64,000 bases of DNA from Minisyncoccota bacterium (GTDB taxonomy: Bacteria; Patescibacteriota; Minisyncoccia; Phycocordibacterales; UBA918): positions 4,078 through 68,077 of the forward strand of contig JALHRC010000004.1 in the NCBI GenBank assembly GCA_022841645.1, given 5' to 3'. A program made the translations under genes and the position numbers. A model generated the notes under the pieces. That model saw only the letters and a program-made list of their open reading frames with translations. It searched no databases and was not told the origin of the DNA. Of the stretch, positions 803 to 51,043 are shown in pieces. The stretch's first letter is position 1. Each line of letters begins with the position of its first letter.

Positions 803-1564
803 ATGAATCTCATTACTCTTAACACCTGGGGTGGTCGTGGCGGGCATGCCGGCCTCATGAGGTTTTTTCACGATCACTCTGGTACTGATGTTTTCTGTCT
901 GCAAGAAATCTGGGCTGGGGGCAACAACGAAATGGTGGGTGTTGTGGCTGGGGGGCAGCCGCTTATTGGTGTCACCACCACACTTCTGGAAGACATCCAG
1001 GCTGTCCTAACTGAGCATCACGTTGTATTTCATCCACATTTCCGTGACTACTACGGACTAGCTGTTTTTGTAAAAAATAAGTACTCCCTTCTGGCTGAAG
1101 GAGAAGTGTTTGTGTATCAAAAAAAGGGTTACGAGTCGACTGATGAGCCAGGCAATCATGCTCGAAACCTTCAGTACGTTACCCTAGAAACAACATCCGG
1201 ACCGCTGACTATCATCAATTTTCACGGGCTTTGGAACGGTCAGGGTAAAACCGATACCCCCGAGCGAATACAACAATCCGTTAACATCTTTGAATTTACT
1301 AAGACACTCACCACTCCCTTTATCATAGCTGGTGACTTCAATCTGCGCCCCGACACTGAAAGTCTTGCTCTCTTAGAGCGCGCTGGTATGAGAAACTTAA
1401 TCACCGAATATAACATCACATCGACCCGCACGAGCTTGTACCAAAAAGACGAACGGTATGCTGATTATGTACTTGTGAGCGAAGGTATTTCGGTAACTGA
1501 CTTTGCGATTCTCCCAGAAGAAGTATCTGACCACGCTGCTCTCTCGCTGACTTTTACACTCTAA
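803..1564 (+). CDS. Endonuclease/exonuclease/phosphatase (EEP) family protein
   Basis: 253-aa ORF. Start MNLITLNTWGG, later FCLQE and a C-terminal SDHAALS motif, typical of the EEP fold. Confidence 0.55.
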   Translation: MNLITLNTWGGRGGHAGLMRFFHDHSGTDVFCLQEIWAGGNNEMVGVVAGGQPLIGVTTTLLEDIQAVLTEHHVVFHPHFRDYYGLAVFVKNKYSLLAEGEVFVYQKKGYESTDEPGNHARNLQYVTLETTSGPLTIINFHGLWNGQGKTDTPERIQQSVNIFEFTKTLTTPFIIAGDFNLRPDTESLALLERAGMRNLITEYNITSTRTSLYQKDERYADYVLVSEGISVTDFAILPEEVSDHAALSLTFTL

Positions 1565-2255
1565 GCACCCACCGTTCCAACCCCACCGCCATCTCCCTCT
1601 TCCCAGCGTGCGCGTCGTGGTAGAGCGTAAGGAGTTCACTCGAGAGCTGCTCCACTTCCTCAAGGGAATATTTCCGTAGCGCCGCTTTCGCCTTTTTATA
1701 GGGAAACTCCTTCATTCCGGCTTCCTCAGCGCTTTTCGTAATCGCGGCGAGGCGCATAGCCTTAAGCTGATACCACAAAGACCCGACAATTGCCTCGGCC
1801 GCCATCCCACCCTGAAGTTCCTGTACCAGCACGATCCATAATGTCTTTTTATCACGCACCGCAAACGCGTTTCCGAGCGCAAACGGGTCGCTTTTTTCTT
1901 TGGCGCCAGCTTTGTATTCGTTGAAAGAGGCTGCGTGTTTTTCCAGCTGCTTGCGGTAGGCGGCAAGGGGCGCCTCGTCGATGAGAATGAACGTGTTGGA
2001 CGAGGCGGCTAGTTCTGGCAGGGCGTCTGCTACGGTAGTAGCAAAAAGCTCGTCGACTGACGGGGTGTCGAGAAGACAGACCATTGCCTCACCAAACAGT
2101 GAGACGCCGCTAAGGAGCTGCCCGAGTGCCCCCTCTTCATACTGCTCTGCCTCTAAACGAACGGGTGCGACGCCGGCTTCTTCAAAAGGCGCGAGTGCAG
2201 CGAGCGCCTTTGTACGGACAGTGACTGTATCGCTACCACAAAAAACGTGAAGCAT
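1554..2255 (-). CDS. holA: DNA polymerase III delta subunit-like (HolA-like)
   Basis: 233-aa ORF with a HolA-like pattern (LFGE..VCLLD, LW.QLKAMRL, C-terminal LLTLYHDAHAGK). Lies next to polA. Confidence 0.45.
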   Translation of the reverse strand: MLHVFCGSDTVTVRTKALAALAPFEEAGVAPVRLEAEQYEEGALGQLLSGVSLFGEAMVCLLDTPSVDELFATTVADALPELAASSNTFILIDEAPLAAYRKQLEKHAASFNEYKAGAKEKSDPFALGNAFAVRDKKTLWIVLVQELQGGMAAEAIVGSLWYQLKAMRLAAITKSAEEAGMKEFPYKKAKAALRKYSLEEVEQLSSELLTLYHDAHAGKREMAVGLERWVLRV

Positions 2256-2262
2256 AGGATAT

Positions 2263-4671
2263 TTAGGAGCGGGAAATCTCGTAATTGGTCAGCTCCGCCC
2301 AATTATTCCCCACCGCCGCTTCAACCCTTAGTGGCACGCCATAGGTCTCCCGGTCACGCAGTACCCCTTCCATAACTGCGACTAGGTGCGGGAGTTCAGC
2401 CGCCACAACGTCCTCCTTCACTTCAAATACTAATTCGTCGTGTACTTGAAGAAGCATCCGCACCACGTCTGTCTTGTTGTTTTTTTTGAGATAATCGTAC
2501 ACTTCGTTCATGGCAACACGCATGACATCGGCAGCCGTACCTTGGACCGGCGCATTGATTGCCATGCGTTCGGCACTGGCTCGAATGAAGGGCTGGCTGG
2601 AAGTAATGCCCGGAAACTGCCGGCGGCGACCAAACAACGTTTCGGTGTACCCATGTTTGCGCGCGTATTCCTTGGTCTCTTCAAGATACTCCGCCAGGCG
2701 CGTGAAGGTATTGAAGTAGGCATTGAGGAACTCTTGTGCTTCTTCGCGACTGGTCCCTTCGCCTAAGTTGCCCCGCAGTGCCACTACCCCCATACCATAG
2801 AGAATGCCAAAGTTGATCACCTTGGCCTTGCGGCGCATTTCCTTAGTAACCTCGGTGGCGTCCACGCCAAACACGCGAATGGCCACCCCGGTATGAACAT
2901 CCTCGCCGCGGCGGAAGATGTCGATGAGTTTCATATCGTGGGATAGAATGGCCGCAATCCGTAGCTCGATCTGCGAGTAGTCGATCGAGACGATGCGGTA
3001 GCCGGGCGCCGCCACAAAAGCCTGACGGATAGCGCGACTTTCAGTTGTACGAATGGGGATGTTCTGTAAGCCAGGATTTTGCGTGGCCATACGACCTGTT
3101 GCCGCCCCGGTTTGAATGAAGGTGGTATGAAGACGGCCATCGGGTGCGACAAAGCCGGGGAGGTTGTCGACGTAGGTAGAGACGAGCTTTTGGAGTTCGC
3201 GGTAGCGCAAAATCTGTTCGATGACCGGGTGTTCGCCCTTCAACTTTTCAAGCTCCGATTCCTTCGTCGAGCGCTGTCCACCGGCCGTCTTTTTTTGGTT
3301 TTTTGGTTTGAGACCAAGGGTATCAAACAGAATGTCGCCAAGCTGCTTAGGGGAATTGAGATTAAACACCACTCCCGCATGACCATAAATGGCGGTTTCG
3401 AGAGTTTCAAGTTCAGCATGCATAGTGACCGATAAGGTCTTTAGATAATCAGTGTCGAGGAGAATGCCATTCTCTTGCATGTGGTCAAGAACCGTCATTA
3501 ACGGTTCCTCAATATCGAGGAACAACTGCCATAACCCCACACTTTTAAGTCGCTCTTCTAAGAGCGCAATGATTTGTGACACATCCATGGTGTCGAGAAA
3601 CGCCCGACCGTATTCCATAATATCTTCGACTGAGGCGTTGGTGCGCTCACTTTCAAGGAGCCAAAGAAGGACGGCGGCGCGACGCACGAGTGTGGGACTA
3701 ATCTCACCCGCACTATGCCGCGCTGCCTCTGCCTCCATAACACCAAACAAAGTCTTCACTCTCCCGGTAAGGGAGCGGAACCCAAGCTCGGTAAAAAGTG
3801 CCAGTATAGCTGGTGGGTCGGCGTGGGTGCGCCAGGCAGTTTTTTCAAGCTCGAAGTTAATCGGCGCGTCGGTACGAATCGTCGCCAGCATTTTGGAAAA
3901 CCGCGCCTCTTCTTCTCCGTTTTTGAGGAGCTCGATAATGCGTGGCTTGATACCGGCCGCCAGAAAGGCTTCGTCACCCTTCTTTAATTTTTTATAAATA
4001 GTGTCAAGGTCGCCAAAATGCGTAAGGAGGTCGGTGGCAGTTTTCTCACCAATCCCGACAATACCAGGAATGTTGTCACTCGTGTCGCCACGCAGACCTT
4101 TGTAGTCGGGTACGTGTTTGGGCGGAAATCCAAAGCGTTCTTTAACGGCCACTTCATCATACAAAATAGTGTCCTTAATTCCCTTCTTGAGGGTATAAAC
4201 CGCCACCCGCTTACCGTCAACACACTGCAGTGTATCCATATCTCCCGACGCAATAATAACGCGGATTTCTTTTTGGGTGCGCAATTCGTGGGCGATGGTC
4301 CCAAGAGCGTCGTCGGCTTCAAAGCCCGGGTGTTCGTAGATAGGAATGCCGAAGCAAGCAAAAATAGCGCGCGATCGCTCAATCTGCGCAACCAGTCCAT
4401 CGTCGGTTTTCTCCCGTTTTCCTTTATAGGCCGCAAAGGCAGTGTGACGATAGGTGGGCTCGGGTAGGTCGTAACAGGCGGCGATATAGTCGGGCTTAAA
4501 TTCCTCGATGATGCGCAAGAGCATAGTTACTACACCATAGAGCGCCCCTGAAGGTTCGCCGGCCGGCGTCGTAAAGTCCGGAAGGGCGTGAAATGCCCGA
4601 TGTAAAATAGCGTGAGCATCTAGGAGCACTAGGGTCTTTTGGTCATTCCCTTTCCCGGCGGATTTTGCCAT
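2263..4671 (-). CDS. polA: DNA polymerase I (5'-3' exonuclease + polymerase domains)
   Basis: 802-aa ORF. N-terminal FEN/5'-nuclease motifs (LLDAHAILHRAFHA, GIPGI.GIGEKTA). Family A polymerase motifs (RRxAKxxNFGxxYG; VHDELVFE). Confidence 0.9.
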   Translation of the reverse strand: MAKSAGKGNDQKTLVLLDAHAILHRAFHALPDFTTPAGEPSGALYGVVTMLLRIIEEFKPDYIAACYDLPEPTYRHTAFAAYKGKREKTDDGLVAQIERSRAIFACFGIPIYEHPGFEADDALGTIAHELRTQKEIRVIIASGDMDTLQCVDGKRVAVYTLKKGIKDTILYDEVAVKERFGFPPKHVPDYKGLRGDTSDNIPGIVGIGEKTATDLLTHFGDLDTIYKKLKKGDEAFLAAGIKPRIIELLKNGEEEARFSKMLATIRTDAPINFELEKTAWRTHADPPAILALFTELGFRSLTGRVKTLFGVMEAEAARHSAGEISPTLVRRAAVLLWLLESERTNASVEDIMEYGRAFLDTMDVSQIIALLEERLKSVGLWQLFLDIEEPLMTVLDHMQENGILLDTDYLKTLSVTMHAELETLETAIYGHAGVVFNLNSPKQLGDILFDTLGLKPKNQKKTAGGQRSTKESELEKLKGEHPVIEQILRYRELQKLVSTYVDNLPGFVAPDGRLHTTFIQTGAATGRMATQNPGLQNIPIRTTESRAIRQAFVAAPGYRIVSIDYSQIELRIAAILSHDMKLIDIFRRGEDVHTGVAIRVFGVDATEVTKEMRRKAKVINFGILYGMGVVALRGNLGEGTSREEAQEFLNAYFNTFTRLAEYLEETKEYARKHGYTETLFGRRRQFPGITSSQPFIRASAERMAINAPVQGTAADVMRVAMNEVYDYLKKNNKTDVVRMLLQVHDELVFEVKEDVVAAELPHLVAVMEGVLRDRETYGVPLRVEAAVGNNWAELTNYEISRS

Positions 4672-36162: not shown

Positions 36163-36537
36163 TTACAGTGAAAGGAGATCTTCCTCTTCACGATGAGCAG
36201 TACACGTGCGGGCGGCCGGACTTGCGAGGAGACGCGCCTCTTCAATCGGTTCGCCAGAAACTTCGCAAATACCGTAGGTACCGATTTTGATTTTACTCAG
36301 TGCACGCTTCACGTTACGGTATTCGGTTTCGAGGACGGCCACTGTAGCGCGTCGCTCATTCCAATCCTCTACCACGTCCGCTCCGTCGTTGTGGTCTGGT
36401 TCAGAAGTCTCTCCCCCTACCGGAGCTGCTTCCCAATTGTCCGTGGCGTGATCGTAAGTGGCGATCCCTCGTAGCTCGTCCTCTAAGCGGGCAAGTTCGG
36501 CCTGAAGTGTGGCAGTTTGTGTGGCGATGTCTATCAT
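36163..36537 (-). CDS. DksA/TraR-family C4 zinc-finger protein
   Basis: C-terminal CEVSGEPIEEARLLASPAARTC, an acidic coiled-coil N-terminus. Confidence 0.6.
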   Translation of the reverse strand: MIDIATQTATLQAELARLEDELRGIATYDHATDNWEAAPVGGETSEPDHNDGADVVEDWNERRATVAVLETEYRNVKRALSKIKIGTYGICEVSGEPIEEARLLASPAARTCTAHREEEDLLSL

Positions 36538-38324
36538 ATGTCAGTAGTATACGGCGTTTCAGTACTTACGACGAGTGCGCGCAGCGCAGCAAAGGTAGCT
36601 TGATTGGTCGTGATAACAATGGTCGTGTCATTGGCAAAGCCGTACACCATTGTTGTCACCTCATCATCGTTTGAAAAGAGTCGTAAGTCTCGCCCATCCA
36701 GGGTTACATCGCGCCAACTTTGGCGGGCGGTGGGCTCGGAAACTATAAACGGAGAAAGCGCCGAAGGCAGCGTGGTTTCCCAGCGCAGCATGCCACCAAG
36801 TGCCGCCCGCGCGTCACTCACGCGCACCACGACAAACGGTGTTCGTCCTTCGTACCAACCAAAGGCAATAGCGGTGGCAGTTTGGGCCAGGTTTTGATCG
36901 ATGCCGCGATCGAGGAGGGTGAGGAGGCTGGGTGCTACTAGGGCGCCGGTAGGAGTGGTGACGGAAAGTTCGGTAGTGCTCTCTCCCGTATCGGCAGCGG
37001 TGAGAGCATTCATAAGCGCGTCGCGCTCAAGGACGGAGAGCGCGACCACACCCTGCGGTACGTTAAGTAGACCGTTACTTGTGTTCGTAAGAGCTGGTTC
37101 AGTATCTCCTTGCCACAGCGGCAGGAGATAGAACGTTGCGGTCCCAATTATAATGACGATGACAATTGCGGCAGCAATGTGCGAGGTAGTGAAAAATGTT
37201 CGCCAACTGCGTGCGGGCTCGGCCGCTGCGTAGCGACGTGGAGGAAACTCTACTGGTGCTATCTCAGGCTCAGGTAGTGCTTCTTCCTCTACAGCACTCG
37301 TCACTGGTATAGGTTCCGGAGTTACTTCTTCGCGGACGTACTCGACGGGCACGGGCGTAGCAACTGGCGGACTGACCGGTGGTTCTTCTACATAGACTGC
37401 GACCGGTTCTGGCTCAGGCTCTGGTGTTGGGGCAGGGGCGGGAGCTGGTGGTGTCTTCTCGACTTCTTCTACCACGGGAGAGGTTTCACTTTCATCCTCT
37501 TCACTTTCCCAACGCGGCGTCGGCGAGAGGCCACGACGTGGACGCGTGGTGACCTGCACATTGCTAAAGCCAGTCGTGGAAGTACCAGGCAGCAAAGGAA
37601 AAACACTTTCGGTATTCGGCGTCCAGGTGGTGTGCAGTTCTTCCTCGGGGGGTGGGTCAACCCGTCGTTGAATTTCACCACGGAGGTCGGACTCGTCTTC
37701 AGTTACTTCGCGGCCCGTCTGTGAGGTAGCTCGCTGAATAATGTCGCGCCGTGTCTCGGCGGCGGGCACTACCTTGGTGGTGGCCGTTTTGGCAATCTTC
37801 GCTTCGCGACGGCGCTTCCGCCACTTGCGCAGACCCTCGCGTACGCGGGCAAAAAACGACAAGCCACTTTTTTTGGTGTCAGTAATGATAGTTCCAGCAC
37901 TGTCGTCCTCTTCAATCACGACACGCGATTCGCTTGGGGGTGAGGGCGAACGATTCACTGTCGTGATGCCCTTTCGTAGTTCATGAAAGGGCAGTACAAC
38001 GGTGGGCATCGCACTCAGGTGTTCCGTGAGCGCCTCTTGGGCCGAGGCAGCGCGCTCTTCTGGTGGGTCGTCGCGCACCACTGCCCGTGGTGTCACGGTG
38101 CGCGGTCTTTCCTCCACTTCCTGCGGTGGCGGAAGTGTCTTCGGACGCGCTGCAACTACCCGTGACGGCACCACAATCGGCGCAGTCGAAAGGGGTGGCG
38201 TGGGTGTGGTGGGCTCATCGCTCACGGGTGCCGGCGCTAGCCCACGACGGGCACGCTCGGTTTCCAAATCACGAGCGTAGGTGCGCAGAGCGGGCAGCGA
38301 ATTTGGAGTTGGAGTATCCATCAT
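36534..38324 (-). CDS. Pro-rich, disordered membrane protein with a single TM near residue 370
   Basis: 596 aa. Long PxP-rich N-terminus, TM AAIVIVIIIGTATFYLL, C-terminal extracytoplasmic domain. 4-nt overlap with the DksA-like gene. Confidence 0.5.
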   Translation of the reverse strand: MMDTPTPNSLPALRTYARDLETERARRGLAPAPVSDEPTTPTPPLSTAPIVVPSRVVAARPKTLPPPQEVEERPRTVTPRAVVRDDPPEERAASAQEALTEHLSAMPTVVLPFHELRKGITTVNRSPSPPSESRVVIEEDDSAGTIITDTKKSGLSFFARVREGLRKWRKRRREAKIAKTATTKVVPAAETRRDIIQRATSQTGREVTEDESDLRGEIQRRVDPPPEEELHTTWTPNTESVFPLLPGTSTTGFSNVQVTTRPRRGLSPTPRWESEEDESETSPVVEEVEKTPPAPAPAPTPEPEPEPVAVYVEEPPVSPPVATPVPVEYVREEVTPEPIPVTSAVEEEALPEPEIAPVEFPPRRYAAAEPARSWRTFFTTSHIAAAIVIVIIIGTATFYLLPLWQGDTEPALTNTSNGLLNVPQGVVALSVLERDALMNALTAADTGESTTELSVTTPTGALVAPSLLTLLDRGIDQNLAQTATAIAFGWYEGRTPFVVVRVSDARAALGGMLRWETTLPSALSPFIVSEPTARQSWRDVTLDGRDLRLFSNDDEVTTMVYGFANDTTIVITTNQATFAALRALVVSTETPYTTDI

Positions 38325-42097: not shown

Positions 42098-43228
42098 TTA
42101 CCGCGAACCCACCTTGATCGTGATGGTGCCGATGACTTCCTCGCGCGAATACCAGGCGGCACAGACCGTTTCTTCGGTGGGCTCGCAGGTATTGAAGACA
42201 GTTTCGGTGAGTGTCGCAGTATAGGTACCAGTACGTCGGTAGGTGTGTGGCACCGACTTCACTGGTGTCGTACAGGGGGTGGTGATGCAGCGAATGCCTG
42301 GGACAACTACGCGCTTGGTTTGTCCGTCACCAAAGTCGAGGGTAAATTCACCTTCTTTGCCAATGAGGAATTCTGTGACGAGTGGAGCGGTGCCGGTAGC
42401 GCGCGTGACGGTAAACTCATCGCCTACTGTTCCCACCATATGAAACGTACTACTCATCGCCTTGGCAACAATGGTGGTTGTAGTGGTAGTCGGGGCGCAG
42501 AAGCCAAAGCAGGTATCTTTGGGAGTGAAGAGCGCAGCATACATTTTCATCGGACGTTTGCCGTCTACAAGGAGCTCGTCAAGATTTTCGCAGTTCCCGA
42601 AAATGGCGTCAGAAAAGTTGCCGTTACAAAACTCATCAGTAGTGAGCGTGGCGGTGCCACTGGCGTAATTTACAAACTCCGACTTCACAACTTCTTTGGT
42701 GTCGGCGGTAACAAGTTGTACAAACATACCGAGTGTCGGCGCGGTACTCGCCACATTCCAATTCACCACAATGTCATCGCCGGCGGCAAAGACTGCTGTG
42801 CCGTGGGGACTACTAATCGAGAGAGTTGGTCCGACGGGTAAAGTGGCACAGACCTTTTCAATAACACTGCGGGTGAGCGGTCCCACGAGACCAAGTGCTG
42901 GCACGCCGTGCTCGGTTTGAAATCGCTTCACGAGACTTTCGGTAACAGGCCCAAAGTAGCCGGTCACGAGATCACTCTCGGCGTAAGTGTAGTGACGCGC
43001 GAGAAATGATTGCAGTGCGCGCACCTGGGCCTCTTCGCGCATACCGCGGGAGAGCCCGCGTGTCAGTTGGGGGCACATACGGCTACTGGAAGAAGTGCTC
43101 TCACTAATATCGGTAATGACGGGCGGGGCGTTTTTTGCTTCAGCCGGTGAAGGTATACTAAAAACTCCTAATAATAAGAGTGCGGCGACAAAAGCGCAGC
43201 CAATACTATGCTTGATGGTGGTAGTCAT
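42098..43228 (-). CDS. Secreted protein with a PG_binding_1 peptidoglycan-binding domain
   Basis: Signal/TM. Motif ALQSFLARHYTYAESDLVTGYFGPVTESLVKRFQTEHGVPALGLVGPLT. 376 aa. Confidence 0.6.
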   Translation of the reverse strand: MTTTIKHSIGCAFVAALLLLGVFSIPSPAEAKNAPPVITDISESTSSSSRMCPQLTRGLSRGMREEAQVRALQSFLARHYTYAESDLVTGYFGPVTESLVKRFQTEHGVPALGLVGPLTRSVIEKVCATLPVGPTLSISSPHGTAVFAAGDDIVVNWNVASTAPTLGMFVQLVTADTKEVVKSEFVNYASGTATLTTDEFCNGNFSDAIFGNCENLDELLVDGKRPMKMYAALFTPKDTCFGFCAPTTTTTTIVAKAMSSTFHMVGTVGDEFTVTRATGTAPLVTEFLIGKEGEFTLDFGDGQTKRVVVPGIRCITTPCTTPVKSVPHTYRRTGTYTATLTETVFNTCEPTEETVCAAWYSREEVIGTITIKVGSR

Positions 43229-43271
43229 AGTAGTTATGACGGATTCGAGCCGACTTTATTACTAGTTTGTC

Positions 43272-43311
43272 CACTAACCCCCGTCCCGTTAGGACGGGGG
43301 TTAGTGGACGC
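43272..43311. terminator. 18-bp perfect hairpin between the PG-binding gene and the PEP-utiliser gene
   Basis: GTCCACTAACCCCCGTCC-CGTTA-GGACGGGGGTTAGTGGAC. Confidence 0.5.
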
Positions 43312-43391
43312 ATAATTAGTAACGGCGGATCGCCCTGCTTTGTTGCGGGGTGAGCCGGGCGGATTTTTACTTGCTGTCGTGGAGGGGTAGT

Positions 43392-44939
43392 TCAGGATGC
43401 TTTGGCAACCGTGCCGGCTGCCAGATCCAGTATCACTCTATCCCCCGTTACAAACACCTTGCTGCCGAGTCGCGTACCAATCACACAGGGTTTTTTAAGT
43501 TCGCGCGAAACAATAGCAGCATGGCAGGTGATGCCGCCTTCGTCGGTTACGATGGCCGCCGCTTTTTTCATGTAGGGCACGAGATGTGGATGGGTTTGGG
43601 TAGCGATAAGTATGTCACCTTCAGCAAAACCCAGCAGCTCGTGGTCGTTATTAAAGGCGCTCGTAAGAACAAAGACTCGACCGGCTACTGTGGACGTGGT
43701 GCGGTCGGGCCACGAGGCCACTGCTCCACTAACAGACTGTGTGCTTTTTATTTCTCCAGCGCGCGCTTCAAGTACAGCAGCGATGCGTCCCGTCGCCTCG
43801 CCCCCGGTGTAGTGGGTGACCCCGTCACGTTGGTAGATGGTAAGTAAGCCACGTTGGCGGTCACGCAGGAGTGCTGTGGGAACGGTTGTTCCGGTTTCAA
43901 TTAATGAGAGTAGCTCGTCGGCCGTGTACGACTTCATGTCGACGTCACTTACCCCGTAGTGCGACTTCATGGCGACGATGATAGTGTCGACATATTTTAG
44001 GAGGCACAGCATATAGGTCTGTAGGTCAAAACGCATCACCGACACGTGACCCATGATGTCAGCATGGCGGTAGACCTCCGAGGTTTCTTTCTCCAGCAGA
44101 AGAGTGCGTGCTTCGATGCGTTCTTCAAGTTCGATGAACTTGGTTCGTTCGCTTTGCAGGAACTCGGGATTATTGAGTAATACAGCAATCCGAGACTGGG
44201 CGTGTGCGTGGTCGATGTAGTCGCCACCAATTAATCCCCAAAATAAAAACCCGTAGCGCTCGACCGCATCCCTCAAAGTCGTTTCAAACACTGTGCTGTC
44301 GGAAAAGAGTGTCTCGGGTGGGCGGCACTGTTCGGCAAAGTCGTGAGCGCAATGGGCGAGACGACTGTCGATGGTGCCTAGATACGTGAGGCGTCGACCG
44401 GTCGAGGAGAGAAGTTCGAGATCGGCGTGCGGGAGGTGGTCGGCCAACAGTCGTTCAAATTGCCAAAAGCGCTGTGGCTGGGTCTGCAGGTAGTACGACA
44501 TAATAAATGTCGTGAGTGTACGAACATCCCGTATGAATTTTGCGAGTGTTGACGGGTTTTCTATGAGCAGTAATGACTCCCGAGTAGCGATTTCGGCAAA
44601 GTAGCGGTCGTGCAAGCCTTTCGTTTGTTCATAGGCGTGGTCAATGGCGTCTTCAAATCGAGCAACAAATGTTGGGTCACTGAACGTAGCAAATCCCACC
44701 CCCGCTTCTTCTTCTAAGCTGTCTTCGGGAAACGCGCCAAAGAAACATGAGGTCGGACTGTTTTGTGTGTAGGTGATCCAACCCTCAGGGGCGTAGCCAG
44801 AGAGGTCGCGCATGGCAAAGTAGCTGGCTTCATTGATCCACAACCCAGCACGATCTTGAAACCATACCGGACTGTACTGTGTCTGGTCGTACATAATCCG
44901 CACGTCAGCGGAGAGGGCTTGTGGGTGTCGTGCATTCAT
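43392..44939 (-). CDS. PEP-utilising-enzyme mobile (phosphohistidine swivel) domain protein with an unrecognised ~400-aa N-terminal region
   Basis: C-terminal GGITCHAAIVSRELKKPCVIGT (PEP-utilisers phospho-His motif). N-terminus lacks the PPDK_N ATP-grasp RSS..ED signature. Confidence 0.6.
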   Translation of the reverse strand: MNARHPQALSADVRIMYDQTQYSPVWFQDRAGLWINEASYFAMRDLSGYAPEGWITYTQNSPTSCFFGAFPEDSLEEEAGVGFATFSDPTFVARFEDAIDHAYEQTKGLHDRYFAEIATRESLLLIENPSTLAKFIRDVRTLTTFIMSYYLQTQPQRFWQFERLLADHLPHADLELLSSTGRRLTYLGTIDSRLAHCAHDFAEQCRPPETLFSDSTVFETTLRDAVERYGFLFWGLIGGDYIDHAHAQSRIAVLLNNPEFLQSERTKFIELEERIEARTLLLEKETSEVYRHADIMGHVSVMRFDLQTYMLCLLKYVDTIIVAMKSHYGVSDVDMKSYTADELLSLIETGTTVPTALLRDRQRGLLTIYQRDGVTHYTGGEATGRIAAVLEARAGEIKSTQSVSGAVASWPDRTTSTVAGRVFVLTSAFNNDHELLGFAEGDILIATQTHPHLVPYMKKAAAIVTDEGGITCHAAIVSRELKKPCVIGTRLGSKVFVTGDRVILDLAAGTVAKAS

Positions 44940-44981
44940 AAGAAAAGTATACGCGTTCTGATAAAAGTATAAATAATTTGA

Positions 44982-45010
44982 GGGGCGGCGATCCAGAGAC
45001 CGCCACCCCC
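44982..45010 (-). terminator. Terminator hairpin of histidine-phosphatase-like copy A (GGTGGCGGTCTCTGGATCGCCGCC on the - strand, with a U-G wobble)
   Basis: Paralogous to the hairpin at 45834-45860. A complete stem forms only on the minus-strand RNA. Confidence 0.5.
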
Positions 45011-45020
45011 CGATCGTTCG

Positions 45021-45710
45021 TCAGTCGAGTTTGATATGCGACCACCAGAGGTGGTTGCCGCTCGGGATGCTGGCGATGATCCCAGCGTCCAAGTAGTTGA
45101 TCATGATGGTGGGACCTCCGCAGAAATCCACCAGCCCGCCGATCTCCTCGACCCCCACCTTGGTCTGGTCCGGAATCCAGGTCCGGCATGCCAGGTAGTA
45201 GAGCTTGAGGAGGTACTCGATCACGCCCGAGTGGCTGATTGCCACCACGAGCGGCCGCTCATCCGCCGGACGATTGGCAGCGATTGCTCGGATGAACTTG
45301 TTGACCTCAAGCGCGTGGTCACGGCCCGTGAAGAGAGCGCCCGGCAGGAGCTGCTCGAAGTGCTCCTCGACGAGCAAACTCGTGGCGGCCGCCTCGGTGT
45401 ACCCGCTCCCGAGTCGCTCCCTGAGGAAATCCCCCATCACGTCTCCGTCGATGTGGTTCATCAGTCCGACGAGGTGCGGATTGGTCTTGACCTCGCAATC
45501 GACGCCGATGGTCTGCGCAAAGCGCTGGAGCGCCGGGATGCACTGCTCCCCGCGCTTGTGGCCGCTGACGAAGAGACGGAGCGAGGTGAATTCACCGCTT
45601 CGCCACTCCTTCACGAGCTGGTCGTGGAGGGCCTGCAGACCCTCTTCCGTGACGTCGCCGTCCCGGTCCTTCGGCGGGTGACGACGTAAAAGAACTTTGA
45701 TCAATCCCAT
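45021..45710 (-). CDS. Histidine-phosphatase-superfamily-like protein, paralog A
   Basis: N-terminal LLRRHPPKD (RHG-like) and C-terminal VVAISHSGVIE (the hSHg motif of PGAM/SixA-like enzymes). Clearly homologous to 45884-46630. Confidence 0.4.
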   Translation of the reverse strand: MGLIKVLLRRHPPKDRDGDVTEEGLQALHDQLVKEWRSGEFTSLRLFVSGHKRGEQCIPALQRFAQTIGVDCEVKTNPHLVGLMNHIDGDVMGDFLRERLGSGYTEAAATSLLVEEHFEQLLPGALFTGRDHALEVNKFIRAIAANRPADERPLVVAISHSGVIEYLLKLYYLACRTWIPDQTKVGVEEIGGLVDFCGGPTIMINYLDAGIIASIPSGNHLWWSHIKLD

Positions 45711-45747
45711 GACCGTCTGGCCCTCCTTTGCTTGGGATAGCGCAACT

Positions 45748-45766
45748 ACTATACACTTCTGTCAAT
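45748..45766 (-). promoter_or_regulatory. Conserved 19-nt motif ACTATACA-N4-TGTCAAT upstream of paralog A (duplicated with the gene)
   Basis: Same 8+4+7 motif sits at 46670-46688 upstream of paralog B. Confidence 0.4.
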
Positions 45767-45833
45767 TATTTACAAGGCCAGAGATAATCCCGTCGATGTT
45801 TGGAAGATAGCTGTGTTGTGCAAATAAAAGAAG

Positions 45834-45860
45834 GGTGGCAGTCCGGAGACCGCCACCCCC
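45834..45860 (-). terminator. Terminator hairpin of histidine-phosphatase-like copy B, followed by a T-run on the - strand
   Basis: GGTGGC-A-GTC-CGGA-GAC-C-GCCACC. Minus strand continues CTTCTTTTATTTG. Confidence 0.55.
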
Positions 45861-45883
45861 CCTCGTCTGCCTCTGCCCGCTCG

Positions 45884-46630
45884 TCAGTCGAGCGAGACCT
45901 TGAGGCCCCGCAAGTGCCGGCGGTCGAGTATCGCACTCGCTTCCCCGTCACTGTCGTAGGTGATGGTGATCATCGGCCCCTCGCAGAAGCCCAGGAGCCC
46001 GCCGAGCTCCTTGGCGCCCACCTTCGTGGCGTCGGTGATGTTGGGGTGGTTCTCGAGGTAGACGGTCTTGAGCCAGTCCTCGACGACCCCGGAGTGGCTG
46101 ATCGCCACCACGAGTGTCTTCTCGCCGATCGGCTCTTCCCGCGCGACGGTGCGTACCATTTCACCGATCTGCGCTCCGTGCTCCCGCCGCGTGAACGGGC
46201 AGCCGGGAAACTCCTGGTCGTAGTACTCCTTGATGAGCAGGTGGTTGCCTTGCTTTTCAAAGTCGGCACTCGGCGGTTCGTACTTTGGACGACCGTCAGT
46301 GACCGCCGTCACCGCGGTTCCCAGCTGCTGGTTCAGCTCCGCGATCATCGCCTCCCCGTCGATCCGATCGGCCAACCCCTGGAGGAGCGGGCTCGTGCTC
46401 ACCGTACACGTGATGACGATCGTCCGCGTGAAGCGCTCGAGTACCGAAATGCTCTGCTGACCACGCGGCAAAGGGCTCACGAGGAGCTTGAGCGAATCGA
46501 AGCCGCCGATCCGCCACAGGGTGGTGAGGAAGTCGTGCAAGGTGTTCTTGCCGCTCCCCTTCAAGTTGCCGGTCGCCGGATCCTTCTCCGGATGCCGGAG
46601 GAGGAGAATCGTCGTCGTGCGTGTGGCCAT
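45884..46630 (-). CDS. Histidine-phosphatase-superfamily-like protein, paralog B
   Basis: LLLRHPEKD ... LVVAISHSGVVED. Shares extended blocks with paralog A (TKVG..ELGGL..FC.GP.I.I.Y ... LD end). Confidence 0.4.
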   Translation of the reverse strand: MATRTTTILLLRHPEKDPATGNLKGSGKNTLHDFLTTLWRIGGFDSLKLLVSPLPRGQQSISVLERFTRTIVITCTVSTSPLLQGLADRIDGEAMIAELNQQLGTAVTAVTDGRPKYEPPSADFEKQGNHLLIKEYYDQEFPGCPFTRREHGAQIGEMVRTVAREEPIGEKTLVVAISHSGVVEDWLKTVYLENHPNITDATKVGAKELGGLLGFCEGPMITITYDSDGEASAILDRRHLRGLKVSLD

Positions 46631-46669
46631 CTGGCCCTCCCGTTGTTGCCGTCAAAGAACGACGCAATC

Positions 46670-46688
46670 ACTATACAAAACTGTCAAT
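46670..46688 (-). promoter_or_regulatory. Conserved ACTATACA-N4-TGTCAAT motif upstream of paralog B
   Basis: See 45748-45766. Confidence 0.4.
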
Positions 46689-46718
46689 CGTACGCATGTT
46701 TTTTAGGCAACTACCTAC

Positions 46719-46778
46719 AGTAACGTTACTGTAAGCCATGTTGTTAAGGTTTATATAACGAGAGAATTCGTTATATGG
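46719..46778. promoter_or_regulatory. Two palindromes in the divergent promoter region: AGTAACGTTACT (perfect 12-mer) and TTATATAACGA-GAGAAT-TCGTTATATGG
   Basis: Both lie just upstream of the 46791 regulator gene and are candidate operator sites. Confidence 0.4.
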
Positions 46779-46790
46779 TATGGTGAGAGT

Positions 46791-47570
46791 GTGAAAGTCA
46801 GTCGCCATGAGATAAAGTTGCTCGATCTGTCTCCACGCGAAGTGGTGGTTTTGCGCGCACTGGAGGAGTGTGATGATGACGGCCTACAAATCTACGAACT
46901 CTCTGACGTGCTCTCGCTTCCCCACTCGAGTCTCACCTACACCCTTGGTCAATTGTATGAACGCAACCTGGTGGCGTATGAGCTTCGCGGTCGACGCAAG
47001 ATCTGGCAGTCGCGCCTGGGTGACGTAGCCTTTCGCAAGCGCCTCGGGTCACTGGAAAGTGTGGCGGGTGACATGCGGATTGTCGAAGGAACCGAAGCTA
47101 TCAAGGCCCTCTACCTTTCGGCACTTGAACTTCATCCGCACGAACGACTCACTATCCTCGAAGGCAACGCGGCGGTTCACACACTGCGCGTGAAGGTGGG
47201 GCATGAGTTTATGCGGGAGTGGCACACGCTGGCTATCAAGCGCGAGATTATCGCCGAAAGTATTTTAGGGGAGTCGGGCTTTGCAGATATCCGCGCGGCA
47301 CGTATTCACCCTGCGGTGGTCGAAAGTCTCACCCGTTTCAAGCTCTGGGTAGGGTACGTCGTACCCGATGCGTTTATGAAAATAGATGTGGCCGTCATTG
47401 CTTTCCGCGAAGTGATTATTATTGTTGATTGGGCAAGCGAACGCGCGGTCGTGATCAATACCCCCGAGCCGGTACGCCTCATTCGTGGTTTCCTCGACGC
47501 ACTCGTGATGACCGGCAGAAAAGTAGATCTGGTAAAGGAAGTGAAACTGGCGGCAGACAAACTGAAATAG
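46791..47570 (+). CDS. Winged-helix transcriptional regulator, TrmB-like architecture (GTG start)
   Basis: N-terminal wHTH (VVVLRALEECDDDGLQIYELSDVLSLPHSSLTYTLGQLYERNLV). C-terminal domain resembles that of 47638-48396. Confidence 0.5.
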   Translation: MKVSRHEIKLLDLSPREVVVLRALEECDDDGLQIYELSDVLSLPHSSLTYTLGQLYERNLVAYELRGRRKIWQSRLGDVAFRKRLGSLESVAGDMRIVEGTEAIKALYLSALELHPHERLTILEGNAAVHTLRVKVGHEFMREWHTLAIKREIIAESILGESGFADIRAARIHPAVVESLTRFKLWVGYVVPDAFMKIDVAVIAFREVIIIVDWASERAVVINTPEPVRLIRGFLDALVMTGRKVDLVKEVKLAADKLK

Positions 47571-47637
47571 TTTCACTATGGGAAAATGAAAACGGCGACT
47601 CTGGGAAGATGCTGTCGCCAACTGGTGAGCTAGTTCC

Positions 47638-48396
47638 CTATCCGCTCGCCAGGCGCCAAAGAGTGTCGAAGTAGTGGGCTTGGCTTTTAGCTACGGCGCT
47701 GTTTTTGATACTGAAGGTGAGGTGTGGTTCGCCGTAGATATAGAAGGCGACCGTGTCGTCGTAGATGACGGTGTTAACCAGATTGTTTTCGAGGCCCGGA
47801 AGGACGCGGTAGGTGGTGTCCTTACGTCGTTGCGCCGCATCCTTTAGTTGTGGGTAGAGGGTCTGAGGACCAACTAGTTTAAAGGCGATGTGTTTCTGGT
47901 TGCGAATACGTTCCCACTCTTCATGTACACTTTCTCCGACCCGACTAAAGTACTGTTGCCACTCGCCGCAGATCATCCGTACCACCGATTGTGCTGGAGT
48001 GGCACGAATATGATCGAGCATGGCTCCACGAAACGCCGCCTGCCCTTCCGCTACATCAAATTCTTGCGCTGCGGTGGTTTTGCGTAGTGGGGCGAGTAGT
48101 GCACTTAGGGTGCGGGCTTTTTCTTCGTGCGCTTCGGCGAGCGTGAGGAGGGTGCGGGGATGTTGGGCTTCCCAGAGGGGACGCTTTCCCGTTACGCGCA
48201 CCACCAACCCCTTTTCTTCTAAGGTGGCGAGAGCGTTGTAGACAAACTGGCGGTGCAGGTCGAGTCGCTTGCTGACGGTGATAGCGGTTGCGTTCCCGCC
48301 ACGTAGCAGGTCGATGTATACCTGCCCGGCCTTTTCATCAATACCAAAGGCCACCAGGTCGTTTGAAATACTTAAGAGGTCAATATTCTTTGACAC
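47638..48396 (-). CDS. TrmB-family transcriptional regulator
   Basis: N-terminal GIDEKAGQVYIDLLRGGNATAITVSKRLDLHRQFVYNALATLEEKGLV is the TrmB wHTH. 252 aa. Confidence 0.55.
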   Translation of the reverse strand: MSKNIDLLSISNDLVAFGIDEKAGQVYIDLLRGGNATAITVSKRLDLHRQFVYNALATLEEKGLVVRVTGKRPLWEAQHPRTLLTLAEAHEEKARTLSALLAPLRKTTAAQEFDVAEGQAAFRGAMLDHIRATPAQSVVRMICGEWQQYFSRVGESVHEEWERIRNQKHIAFKLVGPQTLYPQLKDAAQRRKDTTYRVLPGLENNLVNTVIYDDTVAFYIYGEPHLTFSIKNSAVAKSQAHYFDTLWRLASG

Positions 48397-48543
48397 GTGT
48401 ATATACTACACTTACTCAACAAATATATAGTGTCAGTATACTATGTCGTAACAGTATTGTCACTTTGTAAAGCTCGTGTCACTATTAATGACAGAAGAAC
48501 GTTAACAACGCAACCCGCGCCAGAGGGCGCATAGGAGAGAAAG

Positions 48544-49311
48544 ATGACCAAGAGCCACAAGGGCTGGAAGCAGTACGAGGGTGGTGTCGCCAAGACCTAC
48601 TGCGAGCTGCGCGATCGGCACGAGAACCCGGGCCGGCAATTGCTGCGGAAGTTCGTCGACTCCCTGATGCCCGATTGGCGTTATCGGGGATACGCACGTG
48701 AAGGACATTCTCTACTTGACGTGGGCTGTGGTGATGGGCTCGATCTTGTGTTCTATCACAAGGAACACAAGAGCCTGGATGCTCACGGTCTGTGGGTCTA
48801 TGGTATCGAGCCATGTCGTACCATGGCAAAGCTCGCCGAGCGGCGGCTTCAGAGTGAACGGATGCGTAACACGGTCTTCGAAGGATCATGGGATGATTTT
48901 TCACAGGTGCGTGAAGAAAAGAGGGGCTTCGACGTGGTGACGGCATGTTTCTCGCTTCACCATGCAACTGACCTAGTGGCTGCCTTTCGGAATGTCTACA
49001 GCTGTCTGCATCGCGGGGGTCATTTCGCCTTTGTTGTGCCGGCACTGGCACCGACCGTGGATCAGCGCGTGGTCAATGCGTCGCTGTTTGGGGGCGAACT
49101 GACCGTCCGGTACCCTGTCCGCACGGTCCAGGCGTGGTACGAGGCGATTGACCGCAGTGTTAGCGAACGTTGCGTTTGGAAGAGTGTGGATGAGATGGAG
49201 TCCCCTCCCGGTAAGTGGAAGTGGGTGCACCATACTACCTTCTCGATGTCGGGAGACGAGAATGGTGAGAAGGACGGCTGGTTCGTTGTCTTAAAGAAGT
49301 TGAGGTGGTAG
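48544..49311 (+). CDS. Class I SAM-dependent methyltransferase
   Basis: Motif I LLDVGCGDGLDL. Good RBS (GGAGAG). A hairpin with T-run lies at about 49345-49390. Confidence 0.65.
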   Translation: MTKSHKGWKQYEGGVAKTYCELRDRHENPGRQLLRKFVDSLMPDWRYRGYAREGHSLLDVGCGDGLDLVFYHKEHKSLDAHGLWVYGIEPCRTMAKLAERRLQSERMRNTVFEGSWDDFSQVREEKRGFDVVTACFSLHHATDLVAAFRNVYSCLHRGGHFAFVVPALAPTVDQRVVNASLFGGELTVRYPVRTVQAWYEAIDRSVSERCVWKSVDEMESPPGKWKWVHHTTFSMSGDENGEKDGWFVVLKKLRW

Positions 49312-49442: not shown

Positions 49443-50455
49443 GAGTTAGGACACCACCACTTTAAATACTGTCCATCATACCACTTCGCTGCGCCACCTC
49501 CCGCGCACTGCGATAGCCCAGGATCTTCCTGGGCTTTTCGTTTATTAAGTGGACCGCCAGGTCCACCGCTGCCTGAGTCACCGTACTGAAGTCGGTCCCC
49601 TTGGGAAAGTAGCGTCTCAGCATCTTGTTGGCATTCTCCACCCCACCTTTCTGCCACGAGGCATAGGGATGACAGAAGAAGGCAGGTATACCAACGCGCG
49701 CATGGTCACGATTTTCAATACCGTTATCTCTCGTGATGGAACGAGCCTTGAGGGTGCTCGTGAGGGTCACTTCAACGGCCGCGTGCTCGGCTGGTTTCAT
49801 ACTTCTGACTTTCTTCGCTCCGATCAGTCGACTCTTGCGTTCTGAGACGACTTTAAGGCCACCCTTAGTACCCCACCGTCCCACGATAGTGTCACTTTCA
49901 AGGTGACCGTACCGTGTGCGGTGGTTAGCCCCCTTGGAGCGCTTAGATATATCAATGCGGTGTGGGATCACTGACCGTTTGGCTTTGGGGCGATGCTTCT
50001 TCACGCGTTTTCGACCAGAATAGAGGTGAGCGCAGTACCGCTCACCTCGTGCCGTACGCAGCCACTCATAGATGGCGGTCTTGGAGACGTAGCCGGGACA
50101 CCGTCTCGGGTGTTGCTCCATGTACCCAGCAATCTCGTCAGGGTTCCAGTGGCTTTGGAGCTTAGCAATGATAAAGGCTTTGAGTGCTGGGGTGGCTTCA
50201 ATCTTGGCGTACTGGAAACGCCGCAGTCGTTTGCGTACCCGTACCTTAGCGTCGGCTTTAAGTGGCTGGTACACACCAGCCACACTGTTCTTGGTGATTT
50301 CATAGGCGATGGTGCTTTTGCCCCGTCCAAGGGCCGTCGCAATAGCGCGACGGGAATAGCCCCGCGCGTGCAAGATCCCAATTTCTAAACGTTCCGCTCG
50401 ACTCAAATCCTTGATGCCTTTCATAGTACTGCTGATTATGCAGTGTCCTAACTCA
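49443..50455. mobile_element. IS30-family insertion sequence (~1.0 kb) with short 12-bp terminal inverted repeats GAGTTAGGACAC
   Basis: IR at 49443-49454 and its reverse complement at 50444-50455. Encloses a single transposase ORF. Confidence 0.55.
49462..50424 (-). CDS. IS30-family DDE transposase
   Basis: N-terminal HTH (LSRAERLEIGILHARGYSRRAIATALGRGKSTIAYEI). Catalytic region with HLESDT and further acidic residues. 320 aa. Confidence 0.8.
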   Translation of the reverse strand: MKGIKDLSRAERLEIGILHARGYSRRAIATALGRGKSTIAYEITKNSVAGVYQPLKADAKVRVRKRLRRFQYAKIEATPALKAFIIAKLQSHWNPDEIAGYMEQHPRRCPGYVSKTAIYEWLRTARGERYCAHLYSGRKRVKKHRPKAKRSVIPHRIDISKRSKGANHRTRYGHLESDTIVGRWGTKGGLKVVSERKSRLIGAKKVRSMKPAEHAAVEVTLTSTLKARSITRDNGIENRDHARVGIPAFFCHPYASWQKGGVENANKMLRRYFPKGTDFSTVTQAAVDLAVHLINEKPRKILGYRSAREVAQRSGMMDSI

Positions 50456-50488
50456 TTACGGAATTTTTCTAGGGTCTATCTTCAATCC

Positions 50489-50767
50489 CTACTCAAACAA
50501 ATCAGAGTGGCTTCCAATATCAACGAGGAGTAACACGAGCTCGTTTTGGAATATCTGATATACAAGCAGGATGTCACTTTTGATATGGCACTCACGGTAG
50601 TTTTTCATTGAGCCAATAAGTTGGTGGTCACGGAACTGCGGGGGCAGAGGCTGTCCTTTGGAAAGTAGGTCTACTACTTGTTCTAGGCGAGATTGATCAA
50701 AATCTTTGTGACGACATACGCGCTTGAGTGAGGACTTGTACTTTCGTGATAGAACAACGTCGTACAT
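50489..50767 (-). CDS. yafQ: Type II toxin, YafQ/RelE family
   Basis: DHQLIGSMKNYRECHIKSDILLVYQI is the YafQ signature. Confidence 0.75.
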   Translation of the reverse strand: MYDVVLSRKYKSSLKRVCRHKDFDQSRLEQVVDLLSKGQPLPPQFRDHQLIGSMKNYRECHIKSDILLVYQIFQNELVLLLVDIGSHSDLFE

Positions 50768-50770
50768 AGT

Positions 50771-51043
50771 TTATTCACTGAGAATATCGCGGTGCGCCTC
50801 TTGAATCGTCTTATAGCGTTTGCCATGCTTGAGTGCGTGTTTAGCGTCGCGAATGAGCGCCTGTTTCTTTTTTTCTGAAACGTTGTCGTAGGTAAAGAGC
50901 TCAAACGGGATTGACTGCGTGCGCACGACTTGGGTGAGAAAGAGTTTTACCCCCGTCGAAAGATCAAGCCCCATTCGCTCGAGGGTCTTTTTAGCATCTT
51001 TTTTTAGCTTTGCATCAATGCGTGTTTGCAGGGTGGTGTTCAT
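50771..51043 (-). CDS. dinJ: Type II antitoxin, DinJ/RelB family
   Basis: MNTTLQTRIDAKLKKDAKKTLERMGLDLSTGVKLFLTQVV. Positioned immediately upstream of the toxin. Confidence 0.75.
   Translation of the reverse strand: MNTTLQTRIDAKLKKDAKKTLERMGLDLSTGVKLFLTQVVRTQSIPFELFTYDNVSEKKKQALIRDAKHALKHGKRYKTIQEAHRDILSE

Follow-up and report, generated by a model that had tools for sequence, protein, structure and literature searches.

The window examined here, a 64,000-nt stretch of contig JALHRC010000004.1 from a Minisyncoccota bacterium (assembly GCA_022841645.1, positions 4,078 to 68,077), contains a cluster of three minus-strand genes. One encodes a 515-aa protein with a C-terminal phosphoenolpyruvate (PEP)-utiliser swivel domain, while the other two encode divergent proteins of the histidine-phosphatase fold, referred to below as paralogs A and B. 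The genes and domains of this cluster are as follows.

43392 to 44939, minus strand: gene for a 515-aa protein, the substrate-binding, phosphate-carrying subunit (HpeH/PpsA-like) in a two-component dikinase of the rifampin phosphotransferase (RPH) type, assigned from the open reading frame (ORF), homologues, an AlphaFold2 model and a structural match to RPH.
43740 to 44912, minus strand: N-terminal, mostly helical domain (aa ~10-400) that resembles the rifampin-binding domain of RPH by structural match; presumed second-substrate site.
43413 to 43625, minus strand: PEP-utiliser swivel (phospho-histidine) domain, PF00391, with the codon of His473 at 43521-43523 and Thr471 two residues earlier.
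45021 to 45710, minus strand: paralog A, 229 aa, histidine-phosphatase fold, sub-type A, with the codons of R10 and H11 at 45678-45683, R53 at 45552-45554, E106 at 45393-45395 and H160 at 45231-45233.
45884 to 46630, minus strand: paralog B, 248 aa, histidine-phosphatase fold, sub-type B, with the codons of R12 and H13 at 46592-46597, R56 at 46463-46465 and H179 at 46094-46096.

The C-terminal domain of the 515-aa protein is a genuine phospho-His swivel domain. Its motif, GGITCHAAIVSRE (aa 468-480, nt 43500-43538), lies within the only Pfam match of the protein (PF00391, PEP-utiliser mobile domain, aa 439-509, E 2.2e-22), and a profile search of the PDB matches PEP synthase 8a8e at E 8e-31. 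At least 57 full-length homologues can be found (36-73% identity), for all of which the precomputed annotation likewise records PF00391 alone. Across 42 homologues, the segment from D466 to E480, including T471 and H473, is invariant with the exception of C472, which is at least 90% conserved. The invariant form of the motif is GG-x-T-C-H-AAIVSRE, and the swivel His of the 515-aa protein is therein found in the GG-x-T-(S/C)-H-AAI context. Neither Pfam nor NCBIfam models match a PPDK_N (ATP-grasp) or PEP-utilizers_C domain in the protein. A PEP synthase or pyruvate phosphate dikinase was rejected, as PF01326 and PF02896 are not found in the chain and only PF00391 matches; the NCBIfam PEP synthase models cover just aa 417-511, scoring 92 bits against a cut-off of 598. 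Enzyme I of the phosphotransferase system (PTS) was rejected as well, with TIGR01417 reaching 21.7 bits against a cut-off of 341.7 in the swivel domain only and Enzyme I structural matches spanning only ~105 aa. One homologue, P0050 (709 aa), was considered as a fusion protein and dismissed, as no domain is found in its extra N-terminus, which seems to stem from a gene call extended too far.

The region N-terminal to the swivel domain is best described by structural comparison. RPH combines an ATP-grasp domain and a large rifampin-binding domain with a C-terminal His swivel that shuttles between both sites (PMC4844700). With the AlphaFold2 model of the 515-aa protein as the query (built on 42 homologues, predicted local distance difference test (pLDDT) 93.1), the top six Foldseek matches are RPH entries (E 2e-11 to 5e-10, query-normalised TM-score (TMq) up to 0.50), and RPH is the only PDB match that extends beyond the swivel domain, so that the protein, as modelled, corresponds to RPH minus its ATP-grasp domain, with an RPH-type second-substrate domain preceding the swivel. 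The likeness of the N-terminal domain to RPH is purely structural: a PDB profile search with this domain returns only coiled-coil noise and does not reach RPH at the sequence level. The RPH-Lm structures (PDB 5HV1, 5FBS, 5FBT, 5FBU) share 13-16% identity with the 515-aa protein and differ from it in having the ATP-grasp domain in the same chain and no cognate phosphatase. An initial annotation of the window, made by a model from the letters and ORF translations, had reported the phospho-carrier His motif at the end of this protein, which holds, and had seen no recognisable ATP-grasp or TIM-barrel partner domain in it. All sequence features that it named are found where it had placed them. The protein is nevertheless not a carrier lacking any partner domain, since its N-terminal ~400 aa match the rifampin-binding domain. 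We conclude from the computational evidence that the 515-aa protein belongs to a split dikinase of the RPH family, as the subunit that binds the substrate and carries the phosphate.

Paralogs A and B share 41% identity across 241 aa (E 3e-58), and both carry the RHP-x-KD (RHPPKD/RHPEKD) and VVAISHSGV motifs from which the initial annotation had likened them to histidine phosphatases. This assignment is sustained by several lines of evidence. The AlphaFold2 model of paralog A (four input sequences, pLDDT 90.8, predicted TM-score (pTM) 0.88) has the alpha/beta fold of the superfamily, and its best structural matches are the small-molecule phosphatases GpgP, PhoE and phosphoserine phosphatase (scores of 14.4, 14.1 and 13.9, respectively). 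In an alignment of 19 family sequences (paralog A numbering), R53 is invariant, while R10, H11, K14, E106, H160, G162 and E165 are at least 90% conserved; this set comprises the Arg-His pair, second Arg, acidic residue and second His by which the catalytic core of the superfamily is defined, and the catalytic residues are kept in both window paralogs. When the family profile is aligned with fructose-2,6-bisphosphatase, RH and S-x-x-x-R fall on RHGES and SQLKRTIQTAE, which confirms the register of the RH pair and the second Arg. The model of paralog A also contains a helical insertion of ~50 residues (aa ~78-128) after strand 3.

The family is highly divergent. Neither paralog has a Pfam match even at E <= 1 or any NCBIfam match, and three family members exceed the PF00300 gathering score of 21.7 bits: P0126 (22.3), P0138 (35.1) and P0139 (35.3), whose links to the paralog profile have E-values of 1.8e-36, 2e-4 and 7e-4, respectively. 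Of the three Pfam families to which the initial annotation had pointed, PF00391 is found in the swivel protein, PF00300 in these family members but not in the paralogs themselves, and PF01326 nowhere in the window. Exhaustive HMMER searching of 1.84 billion cluster representatives at E <= 1e-3 yields only 17 relatives of the paralog family, and no ordinary His_Phos_1 protein, of which there are millions, reaches E 1e-3 with the family profile. A single-sequence PDB search with a paralog gives a chance match only, and hhalign finds no significant similarity between the family and the canonical histidine phosphatase that occupies the equivalent position in locus L012. In branch 1 of the superfamily (PF00300: PhoE, GpgP, phosphoserine phosphatase, CobC, fructose-2,6-bisphosphatase, SixA), the first motif reads RHG-E/Q-T/S, whereas it is RHP-E-K-D in the paralog family. 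By these computations, the paralogs are predicted to be catalytically intact members of a rare and very divergent branch of the superfamily, which we call the RHPEKD family (protein lengths of 229-284 aa).

The two paralogs are not the products of a recent tandem duplication. Paralog A falls together with the single-copy genes in loci L005 and L007 (54-58% identity), while paralog B falls with that in L098 (60% identity) and is nearer to a large outgroup clade. Paralog B also matches the 278- and 284-aa genes that overlap the start of the swivel gene in L010 and L013 (E 1e-35 to 1e-37). The two are thus old paralogs. Two antisense ORFs on the plus strand, 45036-45689 and 45800-46723, are regarded as shadows of genes rich in GC at third codon positions (GC3).

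To place the cluster among its relatives, we draw on loci collected via exact-protein look-ups, one genome scan and one metagenome scan. Because the scan of species-representative genomes was dominated by the generic swivel pattern, with L018 as the single full-length relative, the metagenome scan used an alignment of the N-terminal part only. Loci were annotated with local hidden Markov models (HMMs) built from the sequences recovered. The swivel proteins form 28 clusters at 90% identity, two of which lie on contigs that are too short, leaving 26 informative lineages.

In all of these lineages (26/26), a phosphatase-fold gene lies at most 100 nt from the swivel gene. The initial annotation had made its proposal of a module depend on this adjacency being conserved, and it is. 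The identity of the partner varies. An RHPEKD family member is found in 15 lineages by clustering (16 with L007), a canonical His_Phos_1-like gene in 4 (PF00300 in L012 and L015), and a gene of the low-molecular-weight protein tyrosine phosphatase (LMW-PTP) type with the C-X5-R-S motif in 6 (PF01451 in L014; L017 at E 4e-5). A neighbour-joining tree calculated from the swivel proteins shows these types intermingled, which suggests that the partner has been exchanged several times, with one type replacing another. RHPEKD genes are always co-directional with and directly upstream of the swivel gene, mostly with overlaps of 4-11 nt, while the canonical type is always divergent and the LMW-PTP type is divergent, convergent or co-directional. 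Every RHPEKD locus examined has a swivel gene beside the family member, and no other enzyme recurs in the neighbourhoods of the lineages examined. In L005 (1238-1557) and L007 (2330-2644), the position of paralog B, upstream of the partner gene, is filled by a small conserved ORF (~104 aa), which contains the motif LAT-x-x-GQPC-x-W-x-ADLRPATPPG and has no Pfam match.

The RHPEKD branch is a conserved genomic partner of the dikinase subunit in Patescibacteria (CPR, for candidate phyla radiation) as well as DPANN archaea. The polynucleotide phosphorylase (PNPase) of the window is 69-80% identical to proteins labelled Patescibacteria, Paceibacterota, Parcubacteria and Kaiserbacteria; L018 is a metagenome-assembled genome (MAG) of Woesearchaeota; and genes for aIF2-gamma-like GTPases directly follow the module in L017 (6549-7730) and L116, marking these loci as archaeal. 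The module is therefore present on both sides of the boundary between bacteria and archaea.

The distribution of partners bears on one alternative, in which the swivel protein belongs to an antibiotic-inactivating kinase that, like RPH, confers resistance to a rifamycin-like or phenolic compound from neighbouring or host microbes, with the phosphatases being functionally unrelated to it. RPH is the closest solved structure, RPH-like genes are reported to be among the resistance genes counted in CPR genomes (PMC8651080), and the patch looks accessory, with an IS30-like gene and a RelB/YafQ pair nearby. However, a phosphatase-fold adjacency that persists in 26/26 lineages through several replacements cannot be coincidence, a phosphatase that undoes inactivation would defeat resistance, and the identity to RPH is just 13-16%. 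We consider this explanation improbable. PADLOC defence models give zero matches for the swivel protein, both paralogs and the partner proteins of relatives.

The missing ATP-grasp component is found in the relatives, where a PPDK_N domain is adjacent or fused to the swivel protein in 13 lineages. In 11 of these, a stand-alone PPDK_N gene (~315 aa) adjoins the swivel gene, usually overlapping its stop codon by 4 nt. The L018 gene (375-2873) encodes a fusion of the ATP-grasp domain to the swivel protein (832 aa), amounting to a single-chain RPH-like enzyme beside an LMW-PTP-type gene, while in L014 the best ATP-grasp match lies within a 1163-aa PPDK_N and PEP-utiliser protein (903-4394) beside the LMW-PTP and swivel genes. 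A separate PPDK_N subunit is thus encoded with the swivel gene in relatives but not in the window. Since the N-terminal domain is of the RPH type and an ATP-grasp gene is adjacent or fused in 13 lineages, the architecture is that of a two-component, substrate-phosphorylating dikinase of the PpsAB/CreHI/HpeHI type rather than that of the phosphorelay suggested in the initial annotation.

The closest known parallels are found in these systems. HpeH consists of swivel and rifampin-binding domains with the ATP-grasp domain on a separate protein, HpeI, and the same holds for PpsA/PpsB and CreH/CreI (PMC12167813). HpeHI, CreHI and PpsAB (phenylphosphate synthase) therefore share the split observed here: an RPH-type substrate domain and a C-terminal GG-x-T-(S/C)-H-AAI swivel in one protein, and a separate ATP-grasp component of ~35-40 kDa, the counterpart of which is present in the 13 related lineages. 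There are also clear differences. HpeH is ~71 kDa, whereas the window protein is ~100 aa shorter at 515 aa. The known hosts degrade aromatic compounds, whereas the module here is found in metabolically minimal CPR bacteria and DPANN archaea. Its neighbourhoods contain no recurrent pathway enzyme such as a carboxylase or P450, and the phosphatase partner has a histidine-phosphatase or LMW-PTP fold rather than a haloacid dehalogenase (HAD) fold.

We favour, with somewhat better than even confidence, a self-contained dikinase-phosphatase module acting on a hydroxyl-bearing substrate. By analogy with RPH, PpsAB and HpeHI, a separate ATP-grasp protein, whose gene adjoins in most relatives but is absent from the window, would bind and present ATP. 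His473 would attack the beta-phosphate and take up the beta-gamma pyrophosphate, after which the gamma-phosphate would be hydrolysed off as Pi and AMP released. The swivel domain would then ferry the remaining phosphate to the N-terminal domain for transfer to a substrate hydroxyl. Finally, the phosphatase-fold partner (sub-types A and B in the window) would later strip the phosphate from the product or a downstream derivative, such that the components would together form a phosphorylate-then-dephosphorylate module.

The partner is best viewed as a phosphohydrolase acting on the phospho-product or a later derivative. This role is favoured because three phosphatase types occupy one genomic slot and because the paralogs have a helical insertion with no counterpart in SixA and small-molecule phosphatases as their closest structures. 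LMW-PTP enzymes favour aryl phosphates. The characterised two-component dikinases produce aryl phosphates (PMC12167813), which also favours this role. There is precedent in the Hpe pathway, where the two-component dikinase HpeHI is accompanied by a dedicated, cluster-encoded phosphatase, HpeD (PMC9618137).

The same features weigh on a second alternative, in which the paralogs dephosphorylate the swivel phospho-His (or Thr471) and thereby reset or throttle the dikinase, as SixA and PGAM5 do for their own targets. Both of these enzymes are phospho-His phosphatases of the histidine-phosphatase superfamily, SixA acting on phospho-His carriers and PGAM5 on NDPK-B. The targets of SixA are the histidine phosphotransfer (HPt) domain of ArcB and NPr of the nitrogen-PTS, so that an enzyme of this fold acts on a phospho-His carrier tied to an Enzyme I-type swivel system. 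The paralogs belong to the same superfamily and have its fold with an intact catalytic set, the tight spacing of partner and swivel genes, in many cases with translational coupling, suits a protein-protein partnership, and a phospho-His target escapes the futile-cycle problem of a small-molecule substrate. However, SixA is a compact domain of ~160 aa without a cap insertion and with a site open to protein substrates, whereas the RHPEKD proteins are 229-284 aa in length with a helical insertion of ~50 residues, and the best structural matches (GpgP, PhoE, phosphoserine phosphatase) are small-molecule enzymes. In six lineages, moreover, the partner is swapped for an LMW-PTP-type protein, a type known for activity on aryl phosphates, phospho-Tyr and phospho-Arg, and no characterised dikinase of the family requires such a reset factor (PMC12167813, PMC4844700). 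The helical insertion and the LMW-PTP-type replacement make a SixA-like role less likely, and we regard this alternative as rather unlikely.

Several observations count against the dikinase-phosphatase module. Unlike the HpeHI, CreHI and PpsAB systems, the 64-kb window contains no ATP-grasp gene detectable by tblastn or by HMM searches with filters off, nor do the short contigs of the closest relatives (L005, L007 and L098) show one near the module. Likewise in contrast to that class, no sequence similarity to PpsA-like models is detectable in the N-terminal domain, with PRK08296 covering aa 401-512 only. Finally, a co-transcribed kinase and phosphatase acting on one compound would form an ATP-burning futile cycle, and the overlaps of 4-11 nt in most RHPEKD loci imply that the two are often translationally coupled. 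Such a cycle is avoided only if there is an unseen intermediate step, regulation or a difference in specificity. It is because of this weakness that both the resetting of the carrier, discussed above, and a role of the partner in phosphotransfer itself stay alive.

In the latter alternative, the partner is a third catalytic subunit or phosphorelay component, whose nucleophile (His11, or the Cys of the LMW-PTP type) accepts the phosphate of His473 and passes it on to the final acceptor or, in the subclade without an ATP-grasp gene, donates a metabolite-derived phosphate to the swivel protein. Both the histidine-phosphatase and LMW-PTP folds act through covalent phospho-enzyme intermediates. The order of partner, swivel and PPDK_N genes with overlapping stops and starts resembles that of subunits of a single enzyme, the window subclade has no adjacent ATP-grasp gene, and HpeH by itself can shuttle phosphate between substrates (PMC12167813). 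Contrary to what is expected for obligate subunits, however, the canonical His_Phos_1 type is always on the opposite strand and the orientation of the LMW-PTP type is variable. In addition, the swivel protein already has an RPH-type acceptor-binding domain, and the family offers no known precedent for such a subunit; we consider the idea doubtful. Equally doubtful, in our estimation, is a bolder version in which the module, rather than a kinase of small molecules accompanied by a clean-up phosphatase, is a new ATP-driven phosphotransfer machine common to CPR and DPANN organisms. Here, the phosphate of the swivel His would be passed to the nucleophile of the phosphatase-fold partner (His, or Cys in the LMW-PTP type), or a phenolic hydroxyl, such as that of a protein or peptide tyrosine, would be reversibly phosphorylated, with the ATP-grasp-less subclade relying on another phosphate donor. 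If true, the phenolic-hydroxyl variant would represent a dikinase-based tyrosine kinase and phosphatase pair.

To return to the favoured dikinase-phosphatase module, its components are of known kinds, namely split dikinases of the RPH type and phosphatases from the histidine-phosphatase superfamily. What appears to be new is the invariable pairing of the two, the distribution over CPR and DPANN, the exchange of partners among three types and the RHPEKD family, which is unmodelled by Pfam and NCBIfam in the window proteins. Our literature searches yield no description of a dikinase-phosphatase module in CPR or DPANN organisms. Two-component dikinases have so far been described only from pathways of aromatic degradation, and this reading, if true, would widen their range to ultra-small symbionts, both bacterial and archaeal, that have almost no metabolism of their own. 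That the dikinase of these organisms always occurs with a phosphatase, while the latter is swapped among three types, indicates that the pairing itself is kept by selection. The analysis further defines a previously unmodelled and very rare branch of the histidine-phosphatase superfamily. With two or three genes and no other conserved neighbours, the module is compact enough for testing, and the identity of the substrate could show what CPR and DPANN organisms take from their hosts or defend against in them. Given how rare the family is, the significance is moderate for now.

The intergenic regions of the cluster and the genes on either side contribute further features, which bear mainly on its regulation.

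45748 to 45766, minus strand: promoter-region element upstream of paralog A, an exact match to ATTGACA-N4-TGTATAGT.
46670 to 46688, minus strand: second copy of this element, upstream of paralog B, exact match.
44980 to 45011, minus strand: GC-rich hairpin with a 14-bp stem, downstream of paralog A (-28.7 kcal/mol, z -4.75 versus shuffles) and followed by a weak U-tract.
45830 to 45861, minus strand: GC-rich hairpin with a 17-bp stem and a U-tract, downstream of paralog B (-33.2 kcal/mol, z -4.77 versus shuffles) and followed by CUUCUUUUAUUU.
44946 to 44973, minus strand: promoter-like site TTTATA-16-TATACT between the terminator of paralog A and the swivel gene, a consensus match only (9/12).
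43246 to 43332, no strand assigned: imperfect inverted repeat of 41 nt downstream of the swivel gene, 78% complementary with a 5-nt loop; possible terminator.
46791 to 47570, plus strand: winged-helix (MarR/TrmB-like) regulator, divergent from paralog B and a candidate regulator of the module (MarR_2 E 4e-5, under the Pfam cut-off).
47638 to 48396, minus strand: TrmB-family regulator (PF01978 E 1.6e-12), with a presumed tie to the module.

The 19-nt element occurs exactly twice in the window with 0 mismatches, against ~0.09 occurrences expected by chance. In the initial annotation, the two copies of this element and the GC-rich hairpin after each paralog were taken to delimit a duplicated unit of promoter, gene and terminator. 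The elements and hairpins are as described there, the latter being 32-nt copies that are 84% identical, but the duplication is not recent, as the two paralogs group with different relatives. The form TTGACA-N4-T(G/T)TATAGT precedes the partner gene in the whole subclade (the window, L007 and L098, and L005 in a variant form). This presence throughout marks the element as ancestral to the regulation of the gene and not as the remnant of a recent duplication. Reading it as a sigma-70 -35/-10 pair was rejected, as TTGACA and TATAGT are just 6 nt apart; it may instead be a -10 box combined with a regulator site. In the window, a strong hairpin and a promoter-like site part paralog A from the swivel gene, while the gap in L005 is 9 nt, and each of the three genes is predicted to have its own transcription signals. 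The inverted repeat at 43246-43332 sits between the swivel gene and a gene for a peptidoglycan-binding/PKD protein and may be a terminator or a protein-binding site. A search of 43000-48600 against Rfam detects no RNA family and hence no riboswitch or leader.

The higher-GC accessory patch of the initial annotation reduces to the two paralogs: the excess is real but confined to these genes, which have GC contents of 0.62 and 0.64 and GC3 values of 0.83 and 0.86 (A and B, respectively), with the swivel gene at a GC3 of 0.57 and the other neighbours at 0.48-0.66. The same pattern holds in all members of the subclade (4/4), where GC3 is 0.74-0.86 in the partner genes (window 45021-45710 and 45884-46630; L005 1734-2426; L007 2858-3565; L098 2965-3711) versus 0.53-0.58 in the swivel genes. 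In other clades, the partner, swivel and ATP-grasp genes are of one common composition. The excess could represent an old xenologous replacement that was never ameliorated or selection on composition.

A TrmB-like regulator is the only other recurrent neighbour of the module and is confined to the window subclade (the window, L005, L007 and L098). The gene at 46791-47570 has a homologue in the TrmB-like gene next to the L007 module (E 9e-11), and the module is probably under the control of the adjacent TrmB-like regulators. The intergenic region 48397-48543, which separates the TrmB-family gene from a gene for an S-adenosylmethionine (SAM)-methyltransferase, contains five TGTCA/TGACA half-sites along with TATAGT/TATACT boxes, one match being an inverted version of the element upstream of paralog A; this region may be a common operator for the TrmB-like regulators. 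Elsewhere in the window, downstream of the PNPase gene, 36534-38324 encodes a 596-aa protein that is rich in proline and glutamate, with one hydrophobic segment and no recorded Pfam family. Beyond the regulators and the methyltransferase, 49462-51043 contains the IS30-like gene (HTH_38; 320 aa) and the RelB/YafQ toxin-antitoxin pair, which are consistent with an accessory, mobile neighbourhood.

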